From a virus (lineage: Duplodnaviria > Heunggongvirae > Uroviricota > Caudoviricetes): a stretch of 34,527 bases of DNA. This document shows, in pieces, positions 1 through 34,527 of the stretch (position 1 is its first letter; each line of letters opens with the position of its first letter). Position numbers and translations under genes: made by a program. The stretch lies in IMG/VR virus record IMGVR_UViG_2667527789_000014; one strand, written 5' to 3'. The notes beneath the pieces are model-generated. The model saw only the letters and a program-made list of their open reading frames with translations, did no database searches and was not told where the DNA came from.

Positions 1-933
1 CCCAAAAAGAATTCAATTTCAATTTGTTTTACCGGATTTGACCAGTCTGATAAATCTCGCTTAAGTGCTCTTGCAAAAGAAAATGGTATTGATGTTAAGT
101 CTGATGTTGGAAAAAGTTTGTTTTTCCTTTGTGTAGGAAAGAACAAAGGGTGGCGGAAAGTTCAGAAAGCCAGCGATTATGGCGTAATTATTCTAACAGA
201 AGAACAATTTATCAATTTTATTGATACTGGTGAAATTCCTCTTGAGCAAGACTGCGTGGTTGAGAATGATATCAGTAAATCGCTTGAGAAGGATGTTAAC
301 ACTTACAAGAGTATGATAGATGAGTTCTCGCTTTCTATCCGTACTGTAAGGGAGTTTCGCCGTAGTAATGCGTTGATTGCGGTATTTGTTGATGGTTACG
401 CAGCTGGTTGGCGCTTTGCTGTAAAAGAGTGTTACAAGGATTCTTTGGATATAAAACTTACCCCAGTAAAAACAGAGTTTTTTAATTATGAAATTTGGAC
501 GCAAGGGGATTCCTTTCAGTTTAATCGCGGTGATGTTTTTTATAGTGATCGCCTGGCGTATGATTCTTATTGCGATTTTTTAAAGCTTGATGATGCTGTT
601 GTTCTTCAGGTGAAATATGAGTGCTTTTCTGGTTACGATTCTGTAAGTACTTTTGATGGTGTGATGGATGGTGAGTTTTCTTTTTCTCGTATGGAACCCA
701 GACCTGTCCATAAATTACCTGTGCTGATTGAAACTCAACTGTATGACCCCGGAAAGATTATTGTTGATGTTTTTGTTCCTGATGCTGCGAAAAAACAATT
801 AAAACTTAAAGACACCTTAGAGCTGAAGCAGGATGAATTTGTCTGTTTACTTCAGTCAGGGTGTTGTTGGGTTAAACGAAGGGAAGCAGGAGATAAGAAA
901 AAACCTGAATTTATTAACCTATTCAAAAAATAA
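1..933 (+). CDS. 3' part of a larger ORF whose 5' end lies outside the window; BRCT-like module followed by a ~230 aa domain of unknown function
   Basis: Frame +1 is open from base 1 to the stop at 931-933, so the listed start at 118 is internal. The first ~75 residues (ICFTGF...SRLSALAKENGIDVKSDVGKSLFFLCVGKNKGWRKVQKASDYGVIILTEEQFINFI) resemble a BRCT fold by eye. The remainder matches nothing I recognise. AT-rich relative to the prophage. Confidence 0.5.
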   Translation, partial: PKKNSISICFTGFDQSDKSRLSALAKENGIDVKSDVGKSLFFLCVGKNKGWRKVQKASDYGVIILTEEQFINFIDTGEIPLEQDCVVENDISKSLEKDVNTYKSMIDEFSLSIRTVREFRRSNALIAVFVDGYAAGWRFAVKECYKDSLDIKLTPVKTEFFNYEIWTQGDSFQFNRGDVFYSDRLAYDSYCDFLKLDDAVVLQVKYECFSGYDSVSTFDGVMDGEFSFSRMEPRPVHKLPVLIETQLYDPGKIIVDVFVPDAAKKQLKLKDTLELKQDEFVCLLQSGCCWVKRREAGDKKKPEFINLFKK

Positions 934-939
934 AAATAT

Positions 940-1346
940 AGCCCGCATATCGCGGGCAAATGTCTATGTAATTCAACGGAGAAAGGGTGCCATATCGACC
1001 GAACCCGGCAACCGGATAGCGGGGGCTTTCACCCCCGCTGCGGTTTCTTACGGTTTACACTGCAAGAACGCCGCAAATTCTGACCACATGATGTTAAGTC
1101 TGAACTCACACGGAGAACGGTGTATCATCCAGACGGTCAACAACATGGTTAAGCATAAAATGCTCACGATGATCGTTTTTTGCGGCATAGCGCTTGACTC
1201 CTTTTACAGGGAGGCGCTAACCTTCCACTTGTCACGGTAGGAAGTGTTAGGGCCTCGGGTTAACATTTAAGTTGACTCGGGGCCTTTCCACATCCGGCCT
1301 TCAGGTAATCCTTCCAGCCATCAGCCGAAAGGCACCCGCGTGTAAT
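940..1346. repeat. direct repeat copy 1 (~406 bp) carrying a hok-like toxin locus
   Basis: Near-identical (about 90 percent by eye) to 1663-2068. Both copies begin with the palindrome GCCCGCATAT(C/T)GCGGGC and end at GCACCCGCG(T/C)GTAAT. Confidence 0.85.
1048..1188 (-). CDS. hok: Hok-family type I toxin, HokA-like small membrane peptide (46 aa)
   Basis: Minus-strand translation gives MPQKTIIVSILCLTMLLTVWMIHRSPCEFRLNIMWSEFAAFLQCKP. It shares the MPQK start, hydrophobic helix and C-E-x-R...E-x-AAFL-x-C-K pattern with HokA as I recall it. AAGGAG lies 9 nt upstream. A 20-codon leader ORF ends in the Shine-Dalgarno region (mok-like coupling). A GC hairpin follows the stop. Below the 60 aa cutoff of the ORF track. 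Confidence 0.65.
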   Translation of the reverse strand: MPQKTIIVSILCLTMLLTVWMIHRSPCEFRLNIMWSEFAAFLQCKP

Positions 1347-1451
1347 GTACTGATTTCCCTTTGTGTGCGCAATGCCTGGCGTTGAAGCAGACAACGCTAT
1401 CGCACTGGTGATATTCTTTCGCACAGGCTTACTCTGTCCTGTGTCGGGGCG

Positions 1452-1655
1452 ATGAAAATGATTCTTTCAAGAAAAAAAATTGAAATTGAGGTTGTGCAAA
1501 GTGGAACGGCTGATAATCCTGAGACGGTTACAAAAATAAAGGTTTCACGCCCGGAAGATCTTGAAGCGTGTGGTGTTATCGTGGAAAAAATTTGTGCTAT
1601 TCATGCAAAATCAGTTAATACCACTGCCAGTAACGACCACAATAAATACAACTGA
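1452..1655 (+). CDS. hypothetical small protein (67 aa) between the two hok-like repeats
   Basis: ORF with GGGG upstream and the repeat-borne palindromic hairpin immediately after the stop. No recognisable motif. Coding status uncertain. Confidence 0.3.
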   Translation: MKMILSRKKIEIEVVQSGTADNPETVTKIKVSRPEDLEACGVIVEKICAIHAKSVNTTASNDHNKYN

Positions 1656-1662
1656 ACAAAAA

Positions 1663-2068
1663 AGCCCGCATATTGCGGGCAAATACGTCTGTAATCCAAT
1701 GGAGAAAGGGGTGCCATATCGACCGAACCCGGCAACCGGATAGCGGGGGCTTTCACCCCCGCTGCGGTTTCTTACTGTTTACACTGCAAGAACGCCGCAA
1801 ATTGTGACCACATGATGTTAAGCCTGAACTCACACGGTGACTTGTGTATCATCCAGACAATCATCAAAATAGTTATGCATAAAATGCTCACTATGATCGT
1901 TTTTTGCGGCATAGCGCTTGACTCCTTTTACAGGGAGGCGCTAACCTTCCACTTGCGAGGTAGATGGGTTAGGGCCTCGGGTTAACATTTAAGTTGACTC
2001 GGGGCCTTTCCACATCCGGCCTTCAGGTAATCCTTCCAGCCGTCAGCCGAAAGGCACCCGCGCGTAAT
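1663..2068. repeat. direct repeat copy 2 (~406 bp) carrying a second hok-like toxin locus
   Basis: Aligns base for base with 940-1346 apart from scattered substitutions. Confidence 0.85.
1772..1912 (-). CDS. hok: Hok-family type I toxin paralog (46 aa)
   Basis: Minus-strand translation gives MPQKTIIVSILCITILMIVWMIHKSPCEFRLNIMWSQFAAFLQCKQ, the same architecture as the copy at 1048-1188 with six substitutions. Confidence 0.65.
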   Translation of the reverse strand: MPQKTIIVSILCITILMIVWMIHKSPCEFRLNIMWSQFAAFLQCKQ

Positions 2069-2770
2069 TTACCTTTTACGTCCGTTACGTGCAACGGATG
2101 ACGTGGCTGTTTTTCCTTCCCCTTCGCCATCCTTTTTCGGAGCAGTTGTGCAAAAGTGTGCAAAAGTGATTTTTGTTGCCACTTCCCGCCAGGCCGCGCC
2201 AGTTCTGGCTTTCCTGATTTTTTCGTTTTCGTCGCCGGATCCTTTTTCAGATCTTCGATCGTGACGTAATTTTAAAAATCTCTTGTTATTCAGTGCATTA
2301 AAATTTTTCGGGATCCTCAGAAAGCCGGAGTTTTTGCACACTTTTGCAAAACCTTGCACAAAGTGCAAAACCATTCAGAAGGGAAATCCTCAGTAATGGC
2401 GCGCCCTGGCGGGGTGTTTTGCACCCCTTTCGATTTGCAAAATTTATCGTACACAAATACCGGAGGCGTGTGCGGGGTAGCGCCGATTACGTCACTTTAC
2501 GCGTTACGTCGCCCCCGAAAATTTCCGGCCATTTGCGGCGATTCTGGGGCGCAGAAATCGTTTTCTGATGTCAGGGGATCGAATCGGGCTGGCGGGGTTA
2601 TCTCTTCGTTACGTGGCGTTACGTGACGTTTTACGCGGGGATTACGTGGGGCGTTTCGTCCATCTTTTTTTCTGCTGCGGACGGTTTTTCGTGGTGGGTG
2701 ATGTCCGTTGATGAATATTTTTTATTGTCGGGGGAATAAAAAAGGCCACATTGCGCGGCCTGTTAAAGTG
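2069..2770. promoter_or_regulatory. non-coding repeat-dense region: TTACG(T/C) iteron-like motifs, TGCAAAA repeats, GATC cluster; possible prophage end/arm or origin-like region
   Basis: At least 10 copies of (A/G/T)TTACG(T/C) in both orientations, clustered at 2075-2095, 2485-2510 and 2600-2650. TGCAAAAGTGTGCAAAAG at 2149-2169 recurs inverted at 2332-2352. Five GATC sites fall within 2238-2580. ORFs in the track here look spurious. Confidence 0.4.
2733..2761 (-). terminator. intrinsic terminator at the end of the late (tail) operon
   Basis: Minus strand reads AGGCC-gcgcaatgt-GGCCT followed by TTTTTTATT, directly downstream of the stop at 2776. Confidence 0.5.
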
Positions 2771-2775
2771 AATGA

Positions 2776-4449
2776 TTATTCGATTATTGGTGAATATTTA
2801 TTTTTAAGCTGGCGGCACTCCTGAGCGACCTGGCTGAACTGTGCGGCCTGCGGAGACGTGCCCGTTTTGGGGTGGGTATGTGATGCCGTAATATCGGCCA
2901 GCTCTTCCACCACATCGGCAAGGTCCGTCAGCATGGTCAGTACATTAATGCCCTCGTTTCCCAGCTTCACCGTATCGCCAACCAGCTTCTGCGCCAGCGC
3001 AATACTGTGACGGACGCCCTTAATCTTTTCGGTAAGGCTGCCGCCCACGGTGTCCAGTGTGTCGCCTTCCACGTCGCGCTCACAGGTACCGGCAACCACC
3101 ATCATGTGCCCGCCCGTGCTGATGCTGTAGTTCTCTTCAGTGATATGGGTGACTGCGCCAGCCTGAAGCGTGGATACGCCCAGGACGGTGGTTGTGTCGG
3201 TTGCCTGTATGGTGGTCTCCCGGCTGGTCAGGCTCCGCGTCTCCTCGTCTGCGCTCACCACGCGCTCGCGTGATGTCTCCTGTATCCGCTGGTCTGTCTG
3301 GCGCTCCCAGTCTCCGGCGACCGTCACGCGCTGCGATACGCCGTCGCGCTGTTGCTGCAACTGCTCGCCCGGCTTCACGTCGGGCAGATTGTGGCCCTCT
3401 GCCATTATCTGGCGGATGAAGGGCTTATCCGCCCGGCCTTCCACAAATCCCACTTCCACCAGGGTTCCGGGTGGCGGGAACTGGAACATGCCGGACTCAC
3501 TGCCCGCCATGGGAACGGGGAGGGGAACGGCGTTATAGACGGGCGTATCTGCTGCCGGGTTGCCGTTCTCGTCAAGCAGCTGGAGATTCACCGCGTAGCG
3601 GGGTCTGAACGGGTCGGCAATATTGCCCGCGCTGACGGCTTCGGTCGGTGCCTCAACACGTGCCAGTTTGGGCAGGTGAAGCCCTGATGCCAGCTCAGGG
3701 AAGGCCTTTTCAGCCTGGCGACGGAAAGGGGACTTCTGGAGGGGAGCGCCGGTAGCTTTATTGCGCGGTGTCCACGTGATGGTCATGTTGTCATCTTCCA
3801 GCATGACCATCGTCAGGCGCTGACCGTTCACCTCCACACCCGGTCGCAGCGTCTGAATCATCGGGAGGGTCATACTGTGCCCGCCCGTTGATGCCTGGCT
3901 GAACTCGTGCGGGATGGTGACGGGGCGACCGGAAAACATCCCCTGCGCGGCAGCAGCGGCCATAATGCCGCCGTCCGGTAACGGATGCCAGATGTAATCC
4001 GGTACGGAGAAAATACGCCCCAGACTGGCCAGCAGTTCGTAGCCCGTGCCGCTGTGTGTGAAATGCGGAACGGGTCTGTCAGTGTAAGCCGCGTTGTCCG
4101 GCAGGATGATTTCCAGCCCGCTGGTCTCACTCAGCCACTGTGTGACCGTGCGCATTGTCGGGTGCTGAAATGAACAGGGGAAGGGGTGATCAAGGATCCC
4201 CGCCATTTCACGAATCAGAAGCCGCACCGAGCCGTTTTCAGCGGGCTGGCTGCGTTCAACGTATCCGGTAAACCAGCGCACCAGGTCGTTTCCGTATCCG
4301 ATATCGAGACGAACGGGGCGCCCGGTGTAGTTCTGCTCTGTTCTGGCCGTGATAAATCCGCGTCCGCACGCGTTCAGCTCAAGCATGACGGAACAACTGA
4401 CCAGCTGAATGGTGTCGTTACCCAGTAACAGACGTTTAGTGGGGTTCAT
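2776..4449 (-). CDS. baseplate hub/central spike protein, fused gpD-like plus gpV-like (VgrG-like architecture)
   Basis: 557 aa. The segment PPGTLVEVGFVEGRADKPFIRQIMAEG matches the gpV/gp5 OB-fold signature by eye, followed by a Thr/Val-rich repetitive C-terminal region. Last gene of the tail operon. Confidence 0.5.
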   Translation of the reverse strand: MNPTKRLLLGNDTIQLVSCSVMLELNACGRGFITARTEQNYTGRPVRLDIGYGNDLVRWFTGYVERSQPAENGSVRLLIREMAGILDHPFPCSFQHPTMRTVTQWLSETSGLEIILPDNAAYTDRPVPHFTHSGTGYELLASLGRIFSVPDYIWHPLPDGGIMAAAAAQGMFSGRPVTIPHEFSQASTGGHSMTLPMIQTLRPGVEVNGQRLTMVMLEDDNMTITWTPRNKATGAPLQKSPFRRQAEKAFPELASGLHLPKLARVEAPTEAVSAGNIADPFRPRYAVNLQLLDENGNPAADTPVYNAVPLPVPMAGSESGMFQFPPPGTLVEVGFVEGRADKPFIRQIMAEGHNLPDVKPGEQLQQQRDGVSQRVTVAGDWERQTDQRIQETSRERVVSADEETRSLTSRETTIQATDTTTVLGVSTLQAGAVTHITEENYSISTGGHMMVVAGTCERDVEGDTLDTVGGSLTEKIKGVRHSIALAQKLVGDTVKLGNEGINVLTMLTDLADVVEELADITASHTHPKTGTSPQAAQFSQVAQECRQLKNKYSPIIE

Positions 4450-28699: not shown

Positions 28700-29010
28700 T
28701 GTTTGGCCTCTTGTAGTAAGTTCTGAAAACTCACCAACCCGAGGTTCCAAGCTCAGGGTGGCGAGACGTACAGGGTTGGAACTACCGGCTACAAGAGATC
28801 CCGGCCCGACCGAAGTCGGCCCCGTACGCCCCGCCATAATTCTGACGCGAAAAAGACGTGGCGATACAGTACGCACAAAAAAACCGCTGGCGCGGTTGTG
28901 CGCTCTTGTAGTCGGCGGGGTTCCAATCCCGGCACCCGTTTTATGAGGTGCGGGAAAACTGTAACCCGACCAGGCGAACGCTGGCAAGCGGTTTTTTTGT
29001 GTGTGCATGT
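28700..29010. promoter_or_regulatory. structured non-coding element inside the early operon (three copies of a 22-24 nt motif in alternating orientation, plus terminator hairpins)
   Basis: Motif CTCTTGTAG...GGTTCCAA occurs at 28709-28750 and 28904-28927 and inverted at 28774-28797. No credible ORF; the 206 aa ORF in the track here is low-complexity. Confidence 0.35.
28866..28894 (-). terminator. intrinsic terminator or attenuator within the early operon
   Basis: Minus strand reads CGCACA-ACCGC-gcca-GCGGT followed by TTTTTTT. It lies upstream of the replication-proximal genes. Confidence 0.45.
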
Positions 29011-32924: not shown

Positions 32925-32990
32925 CGGTCCATCTGGCCTTTATTTCTCAAAATTGTGATCAAGATGATGTTTTCATTGGGGGGCTTCCTT

Positions 32991-33986
32991 ATGTCGATTA
33001 AGAAGCTCGCTGATGGCAAATACTGTGTGGACGTGCGGCCTGCTGGATCTGAAGGAAGAAGATTTCGGCGGCGATTTCCTACCCGTGGTGAAGCGGCGAT
33101 GTATGAACGCCATGTTCTGACGCATTATCACGATAAGGACTGGGTCGAAAAACCTATTGAACGTAAAGCGTTAAGCGATCTTCTGGAACTGTGGTGGGTG
33201 TACCACGGTAAGAATCATCGTTATGGCGCGATGAATCGGGTCAGAATTGAAGCGGTTCTTCGTGATATGCAAGAGCTTGGTATTAACAGAAGTGACCACT
33301 TAACCCGAAAAAATATTATCAGATATCGCCTTGAATTAATGAATCGCGGAATTAAGCAGTCAACGGTAAATCGTTATTGTGCAATGATGAGCGGTTTCTT
33401 TGAAAAGCTGATTGATGTTGAAGAGTTTGTGGGTGATAACCCGTTTCACGAGATACGCAAGCTAACAATTAATCAGCCGGAAATGGCTTATCTTGCACAT
33501 GATGATATTCCCAGGCTAACCGCACTTTTATCTGGCGATAATCTTAAGGCTGTATTGTTAAGCCTGGCTACAGGCGGACGCTGGGGTGAAGTTGCCAATA
33601 TTAAAGGTGAACACATAATTGGTGGGAAGGTTATTTTCATGGAGACAAAGAATGGATCGCGGCGGGTTATTCCTATAGCTAAAGCTCTTGAATCTCTGAT
33701 TAAAGTCAAAGCGACGGGAAGATTAATGAACCCCAGTTATGCGATAGTCAGAAGTGCAATAAGGACTGTGCGGCCTGATTTACCAGTCGGTCAGTCTGTG
33801 CATGTTTTACGGCACACATTCGCAACTCATTTCATGATTAATGGAGGGAACATTATTACCCTTCAGCGTATTTTAGGGCACAGCACAATTCAGCAGACAA
33901 TGACCTATGCGCACTTTGCACCTGATTATCTCCAGGACGCGGTAAGGTTCAATCCGGTTGCGGAGTTGTCCAGATTTTGCCCATAA
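32991..33986 (+). CDS. int: tyrosine integrase (P2 Int-like)
   Basis: Starts MSIKKLADGKYCVDVRP (compare P2 Int MAIKKLDDGRYEV). C-terminal catalytic region HVLRHTFATHFMINGGNIITLQRILGHSTIQQTMTYAHFAPDYL carries the R-H-R-Y signature residues. Confidence 0.85.
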   Translation: MSIKKLADGKYCVDVRPAGSEGRRFRRRFPTRGEAAMYERHVLTHYHDKDWVEKPIERKALSDLLELWWVYHGKNHRYGAMNRVRIEAVLRDMQELGINRSDHLTRKNIIRYRLELMNRGIKQSTVNRYCAMMSGFFEKLIDVEEFVGDNPFHEIRKLTINQPEMAYLAHDDIPRLTALLSGDNLKAVLLSLATGGRWGEVANIKGEHIIGGKVIFMETKNGSRRVIPIAKALESLIKVKATGRLMNPSYAIVRSAIRTVRPDLPVGQSVHVLRHTFATHFMINGGNIITLQRILGHSTIQQTMTYAHFAPDYLQDAVRFNPVAELSRFCP

Positions 33987-34075: not shown

Positions 34076-34101
34076 TGCCACCTTCGGGTGGCGTTGTTTT
34101 T
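34076..34101 (+). terminator. intrinsic terminator downstream of the integrase gene
   Basis: GCCACC-ttcg-GGTGGC followed by GTTGTTTTTT. A second 12 bp stem (AAGGGGGATAGCG...CGCTACCCCCTT) lies at 34044-34073. Confidence 0.5.
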
Positions 34102-34275: not shown

Positions 34276-34527
34276 ATGCGTATTACCATAAAAAGATGGG
34301 GGAACAGTGCAGGTATGGTCATTCCCAATATCGTAATGAAAGAACTTAACTTACAGCCGGGGCAGAGCGTGGAGGCGCAAGTGAGCAACAATCAACTGAT
34401 TCTGACACCCATCTCCAGGCGCTACTCGCTTGATGAACTGCTGGCACAGTGTGACATGAACGCCGCGGAACTTAGCGAGCAGGATGTCTGGGGTAAATCC
34501 ACCCCTGCGGGTGACGAAATATGGTAA
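34276..34527 (+). CDS. chpS: MazE/ChpS-family antitoxin (83 aa)
   Basis: MRITIKRWGNSAGMVIPNIVMKELNLQPG... has the AbrB/MazE fold signature and matches E. coli ChpS as I recall it. AAGGAGG 5 nt upstream. The cognate toxin gene would lie beyond the window end. Confidence 0.75.
   Translation: MRITIKRWGNSAGMVIPNIVMKELNLQPGQSVEAQVSNNQLILTPISRRYSLDELLAQCDMNAAELSEQDVWGKSTPAGDEIW

Follow-up and report, generated by a model that had tools for sequence, protein, structure and literature searches.

The closest described systems are hok/sok (parB) of plasmid R1, the chromosomal hokA-E loci of E. coli, and hokW-sokW of the Shiga-toxin prophage Sp5. Modules of the hok/sok type stabilise mobile DNA and can also act against other phages. 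Translation of hok in R1 depends on mok (PMC9841398). A preprint of 2026 (bioRxiv 10.1101/2025.08.07.668861) reports that 42 of 45 Hok homologues are toxic, that hok genes are enriched four-fold in prophages, and that hok islets hold 13.5% of the chromosomal hok genes of Escherichia; it covers the coding sequence only and explicitly leaves open Mok, Sok, and the mRNA ends. P2-like prophages are not mentioned in that preprint, and hok goes unmentioned in the papers on P2 defence hotspots. The hokW-sokW locus (Takada et al. 2021, PMC8621323) is a prophage-borne type I system, like the loci described below; its toxicity and its RNA antidote have been shown, and it is the only prophage hok locus with a tested role among those found here. 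We considered it as an orthologue of our loci and rejected it, because HokW is a different peptide of 51 aa from another Hok subgroup (the published primers give MKQQKAM...).

The DNA analysed here is a window of 34,527 nucleotides, and its features are collected in Table 1. We find that it very probably carries two separate, apparently functional hok/sok-type loci as accessory cargo of a P2-like prophage that is inserted in E. coli at the ytfP terminator. Two hok/sok loci in a prophage are real but ordinary, and of an already catalogued kind, and RefSeq already names these peptides Hok/Gef. The new details are modest: mok is missing, and the predicted Sok 5' tails are hypervariable and do not cross-match.

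Table 1. Features of the two hok/sok-type loci and of the surrounding prophage (window coordinates)
Feature	Position	Strand	Basis
BRCT-domain gene, 3' part; cargo between hok loci and attachment site	1..933	+	
Repeat copy 1, 'outer-type' hok/sok locus, hok promoter -10 to terminator	932..1350	-	D1-D3, alignment, clustering
Intrinsic terminator, hok-1	941..957	-	
hok-1 mRNA fbi-like 3' arm (..GGUUCGGUCGAUAUGGCACCC)	985..1006	-	MFE and consensus folds
Post-stop G+C hairpin, copy 1	1017..1040	-	Compensatory changes
hok-1 CDS, 46 aa (MPQKTIIVSILCLTMLLTVWMIHRSPCEFRLNIMWSEFAAFLQCKP)	1048..1188	-	Pfam PF01848 27.8 bits; PHROG 251 E 4.6e-19
Predicted Sok-1, RNA ~1230-1293	1194..1293	+	Conserved boxes, fold, analogy with K-12 sokC/sokA
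Leader ORF of copy 1, 20 codons, in frame with hok, UAA directly 5' of SD (AAGGAG)	1204..1266	-	
hok-1 mRNA 5' end, tac-like arm (GGGUGCCUUUCGGCUG...)	1314..1337	-	MFE and consensus folds; Rfam RF01794 match starts here
Putative hok-1 promoter: TTGCGC, 17 nt, TACATT, 6 nt, first mRNA G	1344..1372	-	Read from sequence
Spacer; includes hok-1 promoter (to ~1388) and 67-aa ORF (1452-1655, +)	1351..1654		PHROG match
Repeat copy 2, 'inner-type' hok/sok locus	1655..2072	-	91.9% identity to copy 1, clustering
Intrinsic terminator, hok-2	1664-1680	-	
hok-2 mRNA fbi-like 3' arm	1709..1730	-	MFE and consensus folds
Post-stop G+C hairpin, copy 2	1741-1764	-	Compensatory changes
hok-2 CDS, 46 aa (MPQKTIIVSILCITILMIVWMIHKSPCEFRLNIMWSQFAAFLQCKQ)	1772..1912	-	Pfam PF01848 26.0 bits; PHROG 251 E 2e-19
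Predicted Sok-2, RNA ~1954-2015; -35 1918-1923, -10 1942-1947	1918..2015	+	Same as for Sok-1
Copy 2 counterpart of leader ORF, 15 codons, other frame	1941-1988	-	Stop 13 nt before SD
hok-2 mRNA 5' tac-like arm	2036..2059	-	MFE and consensus folds, Rfam match
Putative hok-2 promoter: TTGCAC, 17 nt, TAAATT	2066..2094	-	Read from sequence; inference
Integrase-sized ORF	32955-33986		Integrase annotated at matching place in 97-98%-identical relative
Attachment core, integrase end (ytfP terminator hairpin)	34077..34093	+	K-12 empty site, 98% relative

Each copy encodes a 46-aa minus-strand peptide of the Hok family, as an earlier note on this DNA had proposed. Both peptides exceed the 22-bit cut-off of Pfam HOK_GEF and match PHROG 251, whose 'MokW-like' tag on the 46-aa peptides names a family and does not denote orthology. 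They share with R1 Hok and HokA-E the small hydrophobic form and the C...T...C-E...AAFL pattern, whereas they are 46 aa long and the R1 and chromosomal peptides 50-52 aa. Among named proteins, HokA comes closest (46% identity to K-12 HokA); against it C12, T14, C27, E28, and the AAFL motif are invariant, and M1 is present. The best NCBIfam model is likewise the HokA equivalog (NF007290), whose cut-off of 89 bits is not reached (37.9 and 36.3 bits), so the peptides are HokA-like, the label they had already been given, and not HokA orthologues. The Hok logo of the preprint has M1, C16, T18, L30, C31, E32, and E41 as conserved residues (bioRxiv 10.1101/2025.08.07.668861). Both peptides fit the corresponding profile of about 50 aa with a hydrophobic helix at the N-terminus and the residues of the logo; the L30 position is P in both copies, and the E41 position is E in copy 1 but Q in copy 2. 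The copy 1 peptide is 80% identical over all 46 residues to 82_1289 of Hok 60%-identity cluster 82 (Escalera-Maurer et al.), and 72_1589 of cluster 72 is identical to a VT2-Sakai relative of these loci. Both clusters are of high abundance, and neither 82_1289 nor 72_1589 is among the three named non-toxic exceptions (bioRxiv 10.1101/2025.08.07.668861); the exact window peptides do not occur in the accessible part of the supplementary text. PADLOC gives no match for the hok peptides, the 67-aa ORF, or a 101-aa ORF, and when one genome for each species was scanned, the matches were all hokA-type loci (40-45% identity), which is uninformative on the range of the 46-aa subgroup.

The reading frames are intact in both window copies, and the 46-aa ORF with a ATGCCGCA-type start codon is uninterrupted in 25 of 25 related copies. 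Among homologues its dN/dS is 0.24-0.5 with dS up to 1.0 (0.31 for copy 2 against copy 1), and variability falls from codon position 3 to 1 to 2. The hok ORF is under purifying selection, and the earlier view of both copies as intact holds.

We next consider where the loci sit. The attachment core GCCACCTTC[G/C]GGTGGCG is the ytfP terminator; its integrase-end copy is the only one inside the window, and a left core is placed ~0.4 kb beyond the left end of the window by a 98%-identical lysogen. The empty site in K-12 has no hok between ytfP and chpS. Because the attachment cores bracket both hok loci and the BRCT gene, all of these are phage cargo. The annotation of the 98% relative lists an integrase, a C-type repressor, Cox, a replication endonuclease, and Ogr, together with portal, terminase, scaffold, P2-family capsid, and tail genes, and the loci lie between two cores (the left one deduced from the relative) in a prophage with P2-type core genes. 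Both hok genes are co-oriented with and directly downstream of the late tail operon, which ends at 2776 with a terminator-like hairpin at ~2740-2765, and the hok loci and the BRCT gene are sited between the terminator of this late tail/baseplate operon and the attachment site. The full BRCT gene encodes 399 aa in L001 (Pfam BRCT, 35.4 bits; PHROG 36782, E 2e-74), and PADLOC gives only a weak domain-level match for its product. Other P2-like prophages, inserted at serS and in yfaA, carry the same hok pair at their end. The earlier note had put the hok loci at the prophage boundary, but comparison with the prophage-free K-12 locus and with the 98%-identical lysogen places that boundary at the ytfP terminator. 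A repeat-rich non-coding stretch does begin at 2072, where the copy 2 repeat stops, as had been observed, but this point is not the prophage end. Of the two suggested origins, import of the toxin locus by the phage agrees with the attachment cores and integration beside it does not. The corrected map therefore takes the prophage past the hok loci to the ytfP terminator, which makes the toxin modules and the BRCT gene part of the phage accessory load. We also considered a separate island inserted in tandem and rejected it, since there is no second core between hok-2 and the tail genes.

The two copies are direct repeats with a similarity far above chance (start-to-start distance 723 nt). Their identity of 91.9% over 420 nt by blastn agrees with the approximately 90% estimated before, and the direct-repeat families D1-D3 within them are 94%, 95%, and 82% identical pieces. 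The hok start codons are 724 nt apart, the two peptides are 85% identical to each other, and the pair falls under the definition of a hok islet, at least two hok genes within 2 kb (bioRxiv 10.1101/2025.08.07.668861). The copies are not head to tail. The 304-nt spacer between them carries a 67-aa ORF whose match covers just the C-terminal half of PHROG 14142, and an intact 138-aa version of this gene adjoins a single hok in lysogen L148; the spacer is a leftover of the 3' part of this phage gene, a sign of recombination between cargo regions. It is present in only 7 of 5426 E. coli genomes. In the search of viral contigs, most matches of a 14-mer scan were chance, and the true homologues were sorted out by blastn.

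Two ~420-bp direct repeats that are 92% identical would fit a chromosomal hok at the prophage-chromosome junction that was recently and locally duplicated in tandem, as first proposed for this pair, and hok islets generally arise by in-place duplication (bioRxiv 10.1101/2025.08.07.668861). The position of the copies across prophages makes this origin scarcely credible: inner copies cluster with inner and outer with outer at three different integration sites, and not with their own neighbours. Copy 1 clusters with the outer copies of other prophages, and copy 2 with the inner copies of L002, L148, L149, L018, and L019. The dS of 0.25 between copies 1 and 2, the gene remnant in the spacer, the empty K-12 site, and the cores on either side of the loci also argue against it. 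The two copies are instead old paralogues that travel as an inner/outer pair.

The predicted hok mRNAs resemble those of R1 and chromosomal hok/sok in their length of ~400 nt, a tac/fbi-like closure, a sequestered Shine-Dalgarno (SD) sequence, and a SokC-like geometry. The tac-like and fbi-like arms of copy 1 pair with each other in the minimum-energy fold and in the consensus fold of 21 homologues, and both mRNAs show the 5'-3' closure in their minimum-energy folds (z -8.1 and -6.8). In the 21 homologues the closure helix is invariant or shows one-sided pair-preserving changes (G-U to G-C, U-G to U-A) with no double changes; 13 pairs elsewhere in the consensus fold carry double changes. The hok SD is sequestered in a hairpin in both copies. 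The G+C hairpin reported after the stop codon is likewise found in both, and 3 of 21 homologues show compensatory AU-to-GC and GC-to-AU changes that keep its pairing. The Rfam model RF01794, which has the orientation of the hok leader, gives 39.2 and 45.4 bits, below its gathering score of 59, and the E-values (6e-7 and 1e-8) still indicate homology to hok leaders. Canonical loci reach 118 bits (hokC) and 122 bits (hokA); leaders of 39-45 bits and the lack of a conserved mok ORF set the present loci apart from them.

A standard sigma-70 promoter scan of 850-2250 passed no site, neither the hok nor the Sok candidates, and for this reason promoter placement follows conservation and the analogy to K-12 sokC. 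The putative promoters and RNA ends accordingly follow weaker matches together with these two guides. All lineages retain the TANATT -10 of the hok promoter, and the putative -35 of hok-2 lies outside the repeat, within the first TTACGT motif cluster.

A Sok-like antisense RNA on the plus strand, which the earlier note had suggested looking for, is predicted opposite each leader. The candidate Sok-1 promoter read from the sequence has a -35 TTGACT at 1194-1199, an 18-nt spacer, and a -10 TAACCT at 1218-1223. The -35 and -10 of the Sok candidates fall within blocks with little or no variation across 18 variants, and the complement of the Sok -10, AGGTTAGC, is also kept in hokA. With RNA ends modelled on those of the annotated K-12 sokC and sokA, Sok-1 would have a 19-nt 5' tail, a 16-bp hairpin, and a C/U-rich 3' tail, and both predicted RNAs share the layout of annotated K-12 SokC. 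The hairpin is specific to the antisense strand: Sok-1 has -30.8 kcal/mol (z -5.8) on the plus strand against -16.1 on the mRNA strand, and Sok-2 has -29.7 kcal/mol (z -5.6) against -15.2. When each variant was folded on both strands, the antisense strand gave -24 to -31 kcal/mol and the mRNA strand -12 to -20 in 18 of 18. Column-wise covariation of this hairpin was dropped because loop indels make the alignment unreliable. These features predict an antisense RNA that is encoded in cis, is transcribed from its own promoter, consists of a 5' tail and a hairpin, and is complementary to the leader.

The 5' tail and the loop of Sok are the most variable transcribed parts, with 0.40 and 0.38 differences per site compared to 0.03-0.12 elsewhere. 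Sok-1 and Sok-2 differ in their 5' tails and are identical in their hairpin parts. The tail-to-target energies are -34 and -32 kcal/mol for the matched pairs and -8 and -13 kcal/mol for the crossed pairs. Because the predicted tails fail to match the target of the other copy, each toxin probably has its own antidote, while the identical hairpin parts would leave room for some cross-regulation. For type I systems, the loci offer a natural hok family without a recognisable mok and a set of natural Sok specificity variants.

The short leader ORF ending in the SD region that had been ascribed to each copy is found in copy 1, which alone has ORFs that reach the SD; a 2-nt indel shifts the frame in copy 2, where the ORF stops 13 nt short of the SD. 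A further copy 1 ORF lies at 1164-1235. No upstream ORF keeps its start, its frame, or its stop across 25 copies, 3 of which lack any upstream ORF of at least 10 codons. No conserved frame starts in the Sok target and is translated to the hok SD as in mok, and the hokA mok start CCCUAUG is replaced by CCCUAAC. Since the copy 1 leader ORF is unconserved among homologues, a mini-mok role for it is conjectural.

The missing mok start and the sub-threshold RF01794 score could also mean that the loci are in decay and have ceased to make toxin, the loss of mok being one part of this. Most hok loci of E. coli K-12 are decayed relics, and K-12 hokA is disrupted by IS150. We regard decay as quite improbable for the present loci. 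The 46-aa ORF is kept in all copies under the constraint described above, free variation in the antisense tail stands beside near-invariance of the fold-back arms, the SD hairpin, and the antisense promoter blocks, and the cluster representatives 82_1289 and 72_1589 are toxic on expression (bioRxiv 10.1101/2025.08.07.668861). In addition, the structure without mok is common to all lineages examined, which indicates a family trait and not a lesion.

How the SD would open without mok was addressed by folding. In the minimum-energy fold of the 3'-trimmed mRNA, the 5' end pairs with GGAAAGGCCCC and the SD is freed, and the mean unpaired probability of the SD goes from 0.29 in the full mRNA to 0.38 after trimming and 0.30 with the Sok target blocked. 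The folds thus lend weak support to mok-independent SD opening after 3' trimming, and the change from 0.29 to 0.38 is too weak to claim a structural switch. It is possible, though on balance doubtful, that the 46-aa Hok subgroup works without mok, that the paired loci form a non-cross-reacting double lock, and that the tails are under diversifying selection. If so, the antisense RNA would control hok translation or decay in another way, such as direct RNase III-dependent decay or obstruction of a leader element for standby or refolding. The toxin of each copy would then be safe from neutralisation by the other copy or by a related element coming in, and P2-like prophages would keep both beside the attachment site.

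If the loci work like hok/sok in plasmid R1, a stable hok mRNA of ~400 nt would be made from a weak promoter. Its 5' end (GGGUGCC...) would pair with a 3' element (...GGCACCC) and so close the molecule, with the SD locked in a local hairpin. The promoter on the opposite strand would yield an RNA of ~62-64 nt, with a single-stranded 5' tail and a long hairpin, that is fully complementary to leader positions -45 to -108. As long as this antisense RNA is present, mRNA opened by 3' trimming would be bound and then destroyed or kept silent. Once transcription of the locus stops or its DNA is lost, the presumably short-lived antisense RNA would vanish first, and the 46-aa peptide would then be made, damage the inner membrane, and kill the cell.

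As biological roles, we would favour prophage maintenance, followed by aborting the infection of other phages, and then by an aid to lysis after induction. Host lysis and phage release as the main role has a parallel in Sp5, where phage release fell by half on deletion of hokW-sokW and the appearance of HokW after mitomycin C depended on RecA (PMC8621323), and it would suit the orientation of both hok genes with, and directly downstream of, the late tail operon. We consider it an unlikely main role, since HokW is a different Hok, the effect in Sp5 is two-fold, and no sequence feature ties the present loci to induction. R1 hok/sok, according to the report as cited in PMC8621323, lowers T4 plating, a further point against lysis as the main role. 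The Stx phages with hokW also carry, beside lom, a separate unannotated 46-aa homologue of the loci described here.

The repeats noted earlier are genuine and form an ordinary pair of hok/sok loci carried by a prophage. The window DNA is from E. coli, and the best match to 900-2200 (98.6% identical) is found in E. coli strain Z1323MEC0001, where RefSeq annotates a P2-like prophage between ppa and ytfP carrying genes for integrase, repressor, Cox, replication endonuclease, Ogr, portal, terminase and scaffold together with P2-family capsid and tail genes. Comparison was made with K-12, where the site is empty (ytfP-chpS-chpB-ppa). The right end of the window, from 34074, aligns with K-12 directly downstream of ytfP, and on the ytfP side of the relative Z1323MEC0001 the K-12 match ends ~20 nt further along. 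The segment common to both comparisons, GCCACCTTC(G/C)GGTGGCG, is the attachment core and corresponds to the ytfP terminator hairpin. The other core copy in the relative lies ~0.4 kb left of the window's first base, and a search allowing up to 3 mismatches found no further core within the window. These positions put the BRCT-domain gene, both hok loci and the repeat-rich region 2073-2775 inside one prophage. An earlier note had put the prophage boundary at ~2068, which is wrong, as the cores bracket the hok loci; the comparison with a prophage-free locus that it proposed places the boundary at the ytfP terminator instead, and its alternative, a toxin locus imported by the phage, is correct. 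Beyond the core, at ~34276-34527, lies chpS, which encodes the host's antitoxin of the ChpB-ChpS type II system; chpS-chpB is absent from this site in Z1323MEC0001.

Features of the hok pair and its surroundings (window coordinates unless a comparison locus, L, is named)
Feature	Position	Strand	Remark
BRCT-domain gene	1-933	+	3' part; full gene (399 aa) in L001, 6835-8034
Intrinsic terminator, copy 1	941-957	-	
hok-1 ORF	1048-1188	-	46 aa; in copy 1
RF01794 match, copy 1	1177-1337	-	E 6e-7, under gathering score
Sok-1 putative -35, TTGACT	1194-1199	+	18 nt to -10
Sok-1 putative -10, TAACCT	1218-1223	+	
Predicted Sok-1 RNA	about 1230-1293	+	ends placed by analogy
Leader ORF, copy 1			20 codons
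GUG ORF, copy 1			23 codons, overlaps hok start
Spacer ORF	1452-1655	+	67 aa; matches PHROG 14142 at 74-122 of 128 only (C-terminal half)
Intrinsic terminator, copy 2	1664-1680	-	
hok-2 ORF	1772-1912	-	46 aa; in copy 2
RF01794 match, copy 2	1901-2059	-	E 1e-8, under gathering score
Sok-2 putative -35, TTGACT	1918-1923	+	18 nt to -10
Sok-2 putative -10, TAACCT	1942-1947	+	
Predicted Sok-2 RNA	about 1954-2015	+	ends placed by analogy
Leader ORF, copy 2			15 codons
Motif clusters	2076/2085; 2487/2497/2504; 2609/2619/2631/2642		
Inverted repeats of TGCAAAAGTGTGCAAAA	2145-2168 against 2332-2362		21-23 nt
GGCCGCGCAATGTGGCC then TTTTTT	about 2740-2765	-	directly after baseplate gene stop
Baseplate gene	2776-4449		557 aa
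C4 antisense RNA	28754-28841	-	Rfam RF01695, 83.3 bits
isrK RNA	28877-28951	-	Rfam RF01394, 69.1 bits
Attachment core	34077-34093		ytfP terminator hairpin
RF01794 match	L151 502-654	-	comparison locus
RF01794 match	L010 2852-3003	+	comparison locus
VT2-Sakai 46-aa hok locus	L150 1470-1860 (AP000363.1 about 44550-44940)	-	

A repeat search of the window found three collinear direct-repeat families (82-95% identity, 722-724 nt start to start) that jointly span 932-1350 (copy 1) and 1655-2072 (copy 2), and blastn gives 91.9% identity over 420 nt, confirming two direct repeats of about 90% identity. Both encoded peptides belong to the Hok family, as proposed: they score above the Pfam HOK_GEF cut-off of 22 (27.8 bits for hok-1, 26.0 bits for hok-2) and match PHROG 251. 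Among NCBIfam models the HokA equivalog fits them best, with scores (37.9 and 36.3 bits) below its cut-off of 89, and they share 46% identity with K-12 HokA, so that 'HokA-like Hok-family peptide' is a fair name for both and 'HokA' is not. Positions invariant relative to K-12 HokA include M1, P2, Q3, K4, C12, T14 and W20-M21-I22, and further C27-E28, A39-A40-F41-L42 and C44-K45. RefSeq names these peptides 'Hok/Gef family protein'.

The copies had been described as a tandem duplication, but they do not abut: between them comes a 304-nt spacer (1351-1654) holding the plus-strand ORF. Of 5426 complete E. coli genomes, just 7 have the spacer. Its ORF is what remains, at the 3' end, of a 138-aa gene, which is intact in the lysogen JNEC-KY202 (L148, 3292-3708) in place of the spacer ORF, flanked by the ytfP core and a single inner-type hok. 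Because the spacer ORF is a partial gene found intact beside a single hok in JNEC-KY202, the present arrangement appears to have arisen by recombination between cargo regions. A local duplication is not supported, since such pairs recur in other prophages, the copies group by position, and dS between the two genes is 0.25 (dN/dS 0.31). The same kind of pair is found at the attachment-site end of other prophages: a related one downstream of serS (L002), a classical P2-like prophage in yfaA (L003), where the pair comes directly after ogr, a second Z1323MEC0001 prophage at serS (L149) and several viral contigs. The ~1 kb common to L002 and L003 consists of the hok-hok module only (90% identity). 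In a neighbour-joining tree of 28 hok copies, the phage-proximal (inner) copies group together, as do the att-proximal (outer) copies, with copy 2 among the inner and copy 1 among the outer ones; some contigs have a third lineage (MSQKS...) in place of one partner. The tight-tandem hok junction occurs in 20 genomes, and the hok family as a whole in about 730 of 5426 E. coli genomes. All 198 matching records of the phage collection are single-match, mostly Stx-converting phages by organism name. The second, related Z1323MEC0001 prophage at serS (L149, NZ_CP148318.1 3147400-3154679) repeats the hok/remnant ORF/hok order of the window, and the strain closest to the window thus holds four such loci in one genome. 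Between lom and orf66, phage VT2-Sakai (Sp5) has a 46-aa hok locus of the window's subgroup that is missing from its annotation, in addition to the published hokW-sokW.

Both minus-strand copies fold into closed structures (z -8.1 and -6.8), in which 5'-end GGGUGCC pairs with 3'-region GGCACCC, and CGGCUGA with UCGGUCG. This closure is retained in the consensus fold of 21 homologues, where its changes are one-sided and pair-preserving only, while compensatory double changes affect 13 pairs in all, in the post-stop hairpin and other helices; the hairpin noted earlier after the hok stop codon is thereby borne out. The hok Shine-Dalgarno (SD) sequence AAGGAG pairs with CCUCC in a local hairpin. 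At K-12 hokC, Rfam RF01794 ('sok antitoxin') matches the hokC strand, opposite the annotated sokC; the family models the hok mRNA leader, from the first mRNA base to the hok AUG. The minus strand of the window matches is therefore the expected one, and the match strand should be read as the hok leader strand despite the family name. The hok 3' UTRs with terminators (936-1026 and 1659-1750, minus strand) give weak isrK-like matches in Rfam, far under the gathering score of 50 (23.4 bits, E 0.016, and 20.7 bits, E 0.08), probably a mere hairpin-plus-terminator resemblance.

In plasmid R1, hok translation requires translation of the leader ORF mok up to the hok SD (PMC9841398). Intact hokA loci have mok as an in-frame extension that begins at CCCUAUG, whereas the window loci have CCCUAAC and an in-frame stop before the SD. 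Upstream ORFs vary in start, frame and stop among 25 copies, three of which have no upstream ORF of 10 codons or more. A leader ORF ending in the SD region, as described earlier, is found in copy 1, where it ends directly 5' of the SD; that of copy 2 ends 13 nt short. A purely structural SD release after 3' trimming, a possible switch for hok translation, is seen in minimum-energy folds but is weak in the ensemble.

The plus-strand search for a Sok-like RNA yielded a candidate promoter and a predicted strand-specific hairpin for each copy. Both hexamer blocks are invariant or nearly so in 18 distinct variants; hokA, too, keeps the complement of the -10, and the -10 of K-12 sokC is equally atypical. 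A standard promoter scan called no promoter at the Sok sites, so both promoters are putative. With ends set by analogy with annotated K-12 sokC and sokA, each predicted Sok has a free 5' tail followed by a 16-bp hairpin, and Sok-1 and Sok-2 fold at -30.8 and -29.7 kcal/mol (z -5.8 and -5.6), compared with just -16.1 and -15.2 kcal/mol for the same segments of the mRNA strand. This asymmetry is present in all 18 variants, including several different, fully paired upper stems.

Mean pairwise difference per site across the transcribed part of the locus is 0.03-0.12 in the fold-back arms, lower Sok stem, promoter/SD block, coding sequence and 3' UTR, and reaches 0.40 in the target of the Sok 5' tail and 0.38 in the Sok loop and upper stem, both above third codon positions (0.17). 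For the window's two predicted tails, binding energies are -34 and -32 kcal/mol with the matching target and -8 and -13 kcal/mol with that of the other copy, and tails differ within all four pairs with both Sok regions extracted (window, L022, L003 and L019). Some cross-talk is possible in this model because the Sok-1 and Sok-2 hairpins are identical. Two details are new in a modest way: mok is absent, and the Sok tails evolve fast and do not match each other.

Loci of the same kind as the window's pair are already known, annotated and catalogued. In prophage Sp5, hokW-sokW has been proven to be a type I system and aids the release of phage, but HokW is a different, 51-aa peptide (PMC8621323). 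A 2026 preprint catalogues 32,532 hok loci, of which 10% lie in islets of 2-6 hok genes within 2 kb (13.5% on Escherichia chromosomes); prophages show a four-fold enrichment of hok, the neighbourhood of defence systems shows none, and two copies occur in 3.5% of the phages that bear hok (bioRxiv 10.1101/2025.08.07.668861). In that study 42 of 45 homologues tested were toxic; those tested include 82_1289, 80% identical to the copy 1 peptide, and 72_1589, identical to the VT2-Sakai relative, and neither belongs to the three non-toxic exceptions; the analysis stops short of Mok, Sok and mRNA ends (bioRxiv 10.1101/2025.08.07.668861). In two papers that treat the defence hotspots of P2 and P4, hok goes unmentioned.

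The BRCT-domain gene is phage cargo adjoining the attachment site; its protein matches Pfam BRCT (35.4 bits) and PHROG 36782 (E 2e-74), and PADLOC gives a single hit, weak and at domain level, to the candidate defence family PDC-S48 (E 2e-7). On the other side of the pair, the GGCCGCGCAATGTGGCC hairpin is likely the late tail operon terminator; both hok genes follow it downstream, oriented like the operon. The whole window has 41 TTACG[T/C][G/C] motifs, where chance predicts about 14. Ten of them fall in the ~700-bp non-coding region 2073-2775 between this terminator and hok-2, and one more sits just beyond its edge, at 2061. They are grouped in three same-strand clusters with steps of roughly one helical turn between motifs, a layout that resembles a protein-binding array. 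The first cluster contains the -35 of the putative hok-2 promoter. ORFs of this region have no family match, and the region itself matches no phage record; it is found in only 12 of 5426 E. coli genomes. A hok locus adjoins its counterpart in all five annotation-read relatives (L001, L002, L148, L149 and strain 154). In the early region of the prophage, the C4 and isrK RNAs lie side by side and are a P1/P7-type immunity RNA pair within a P2-like genome.
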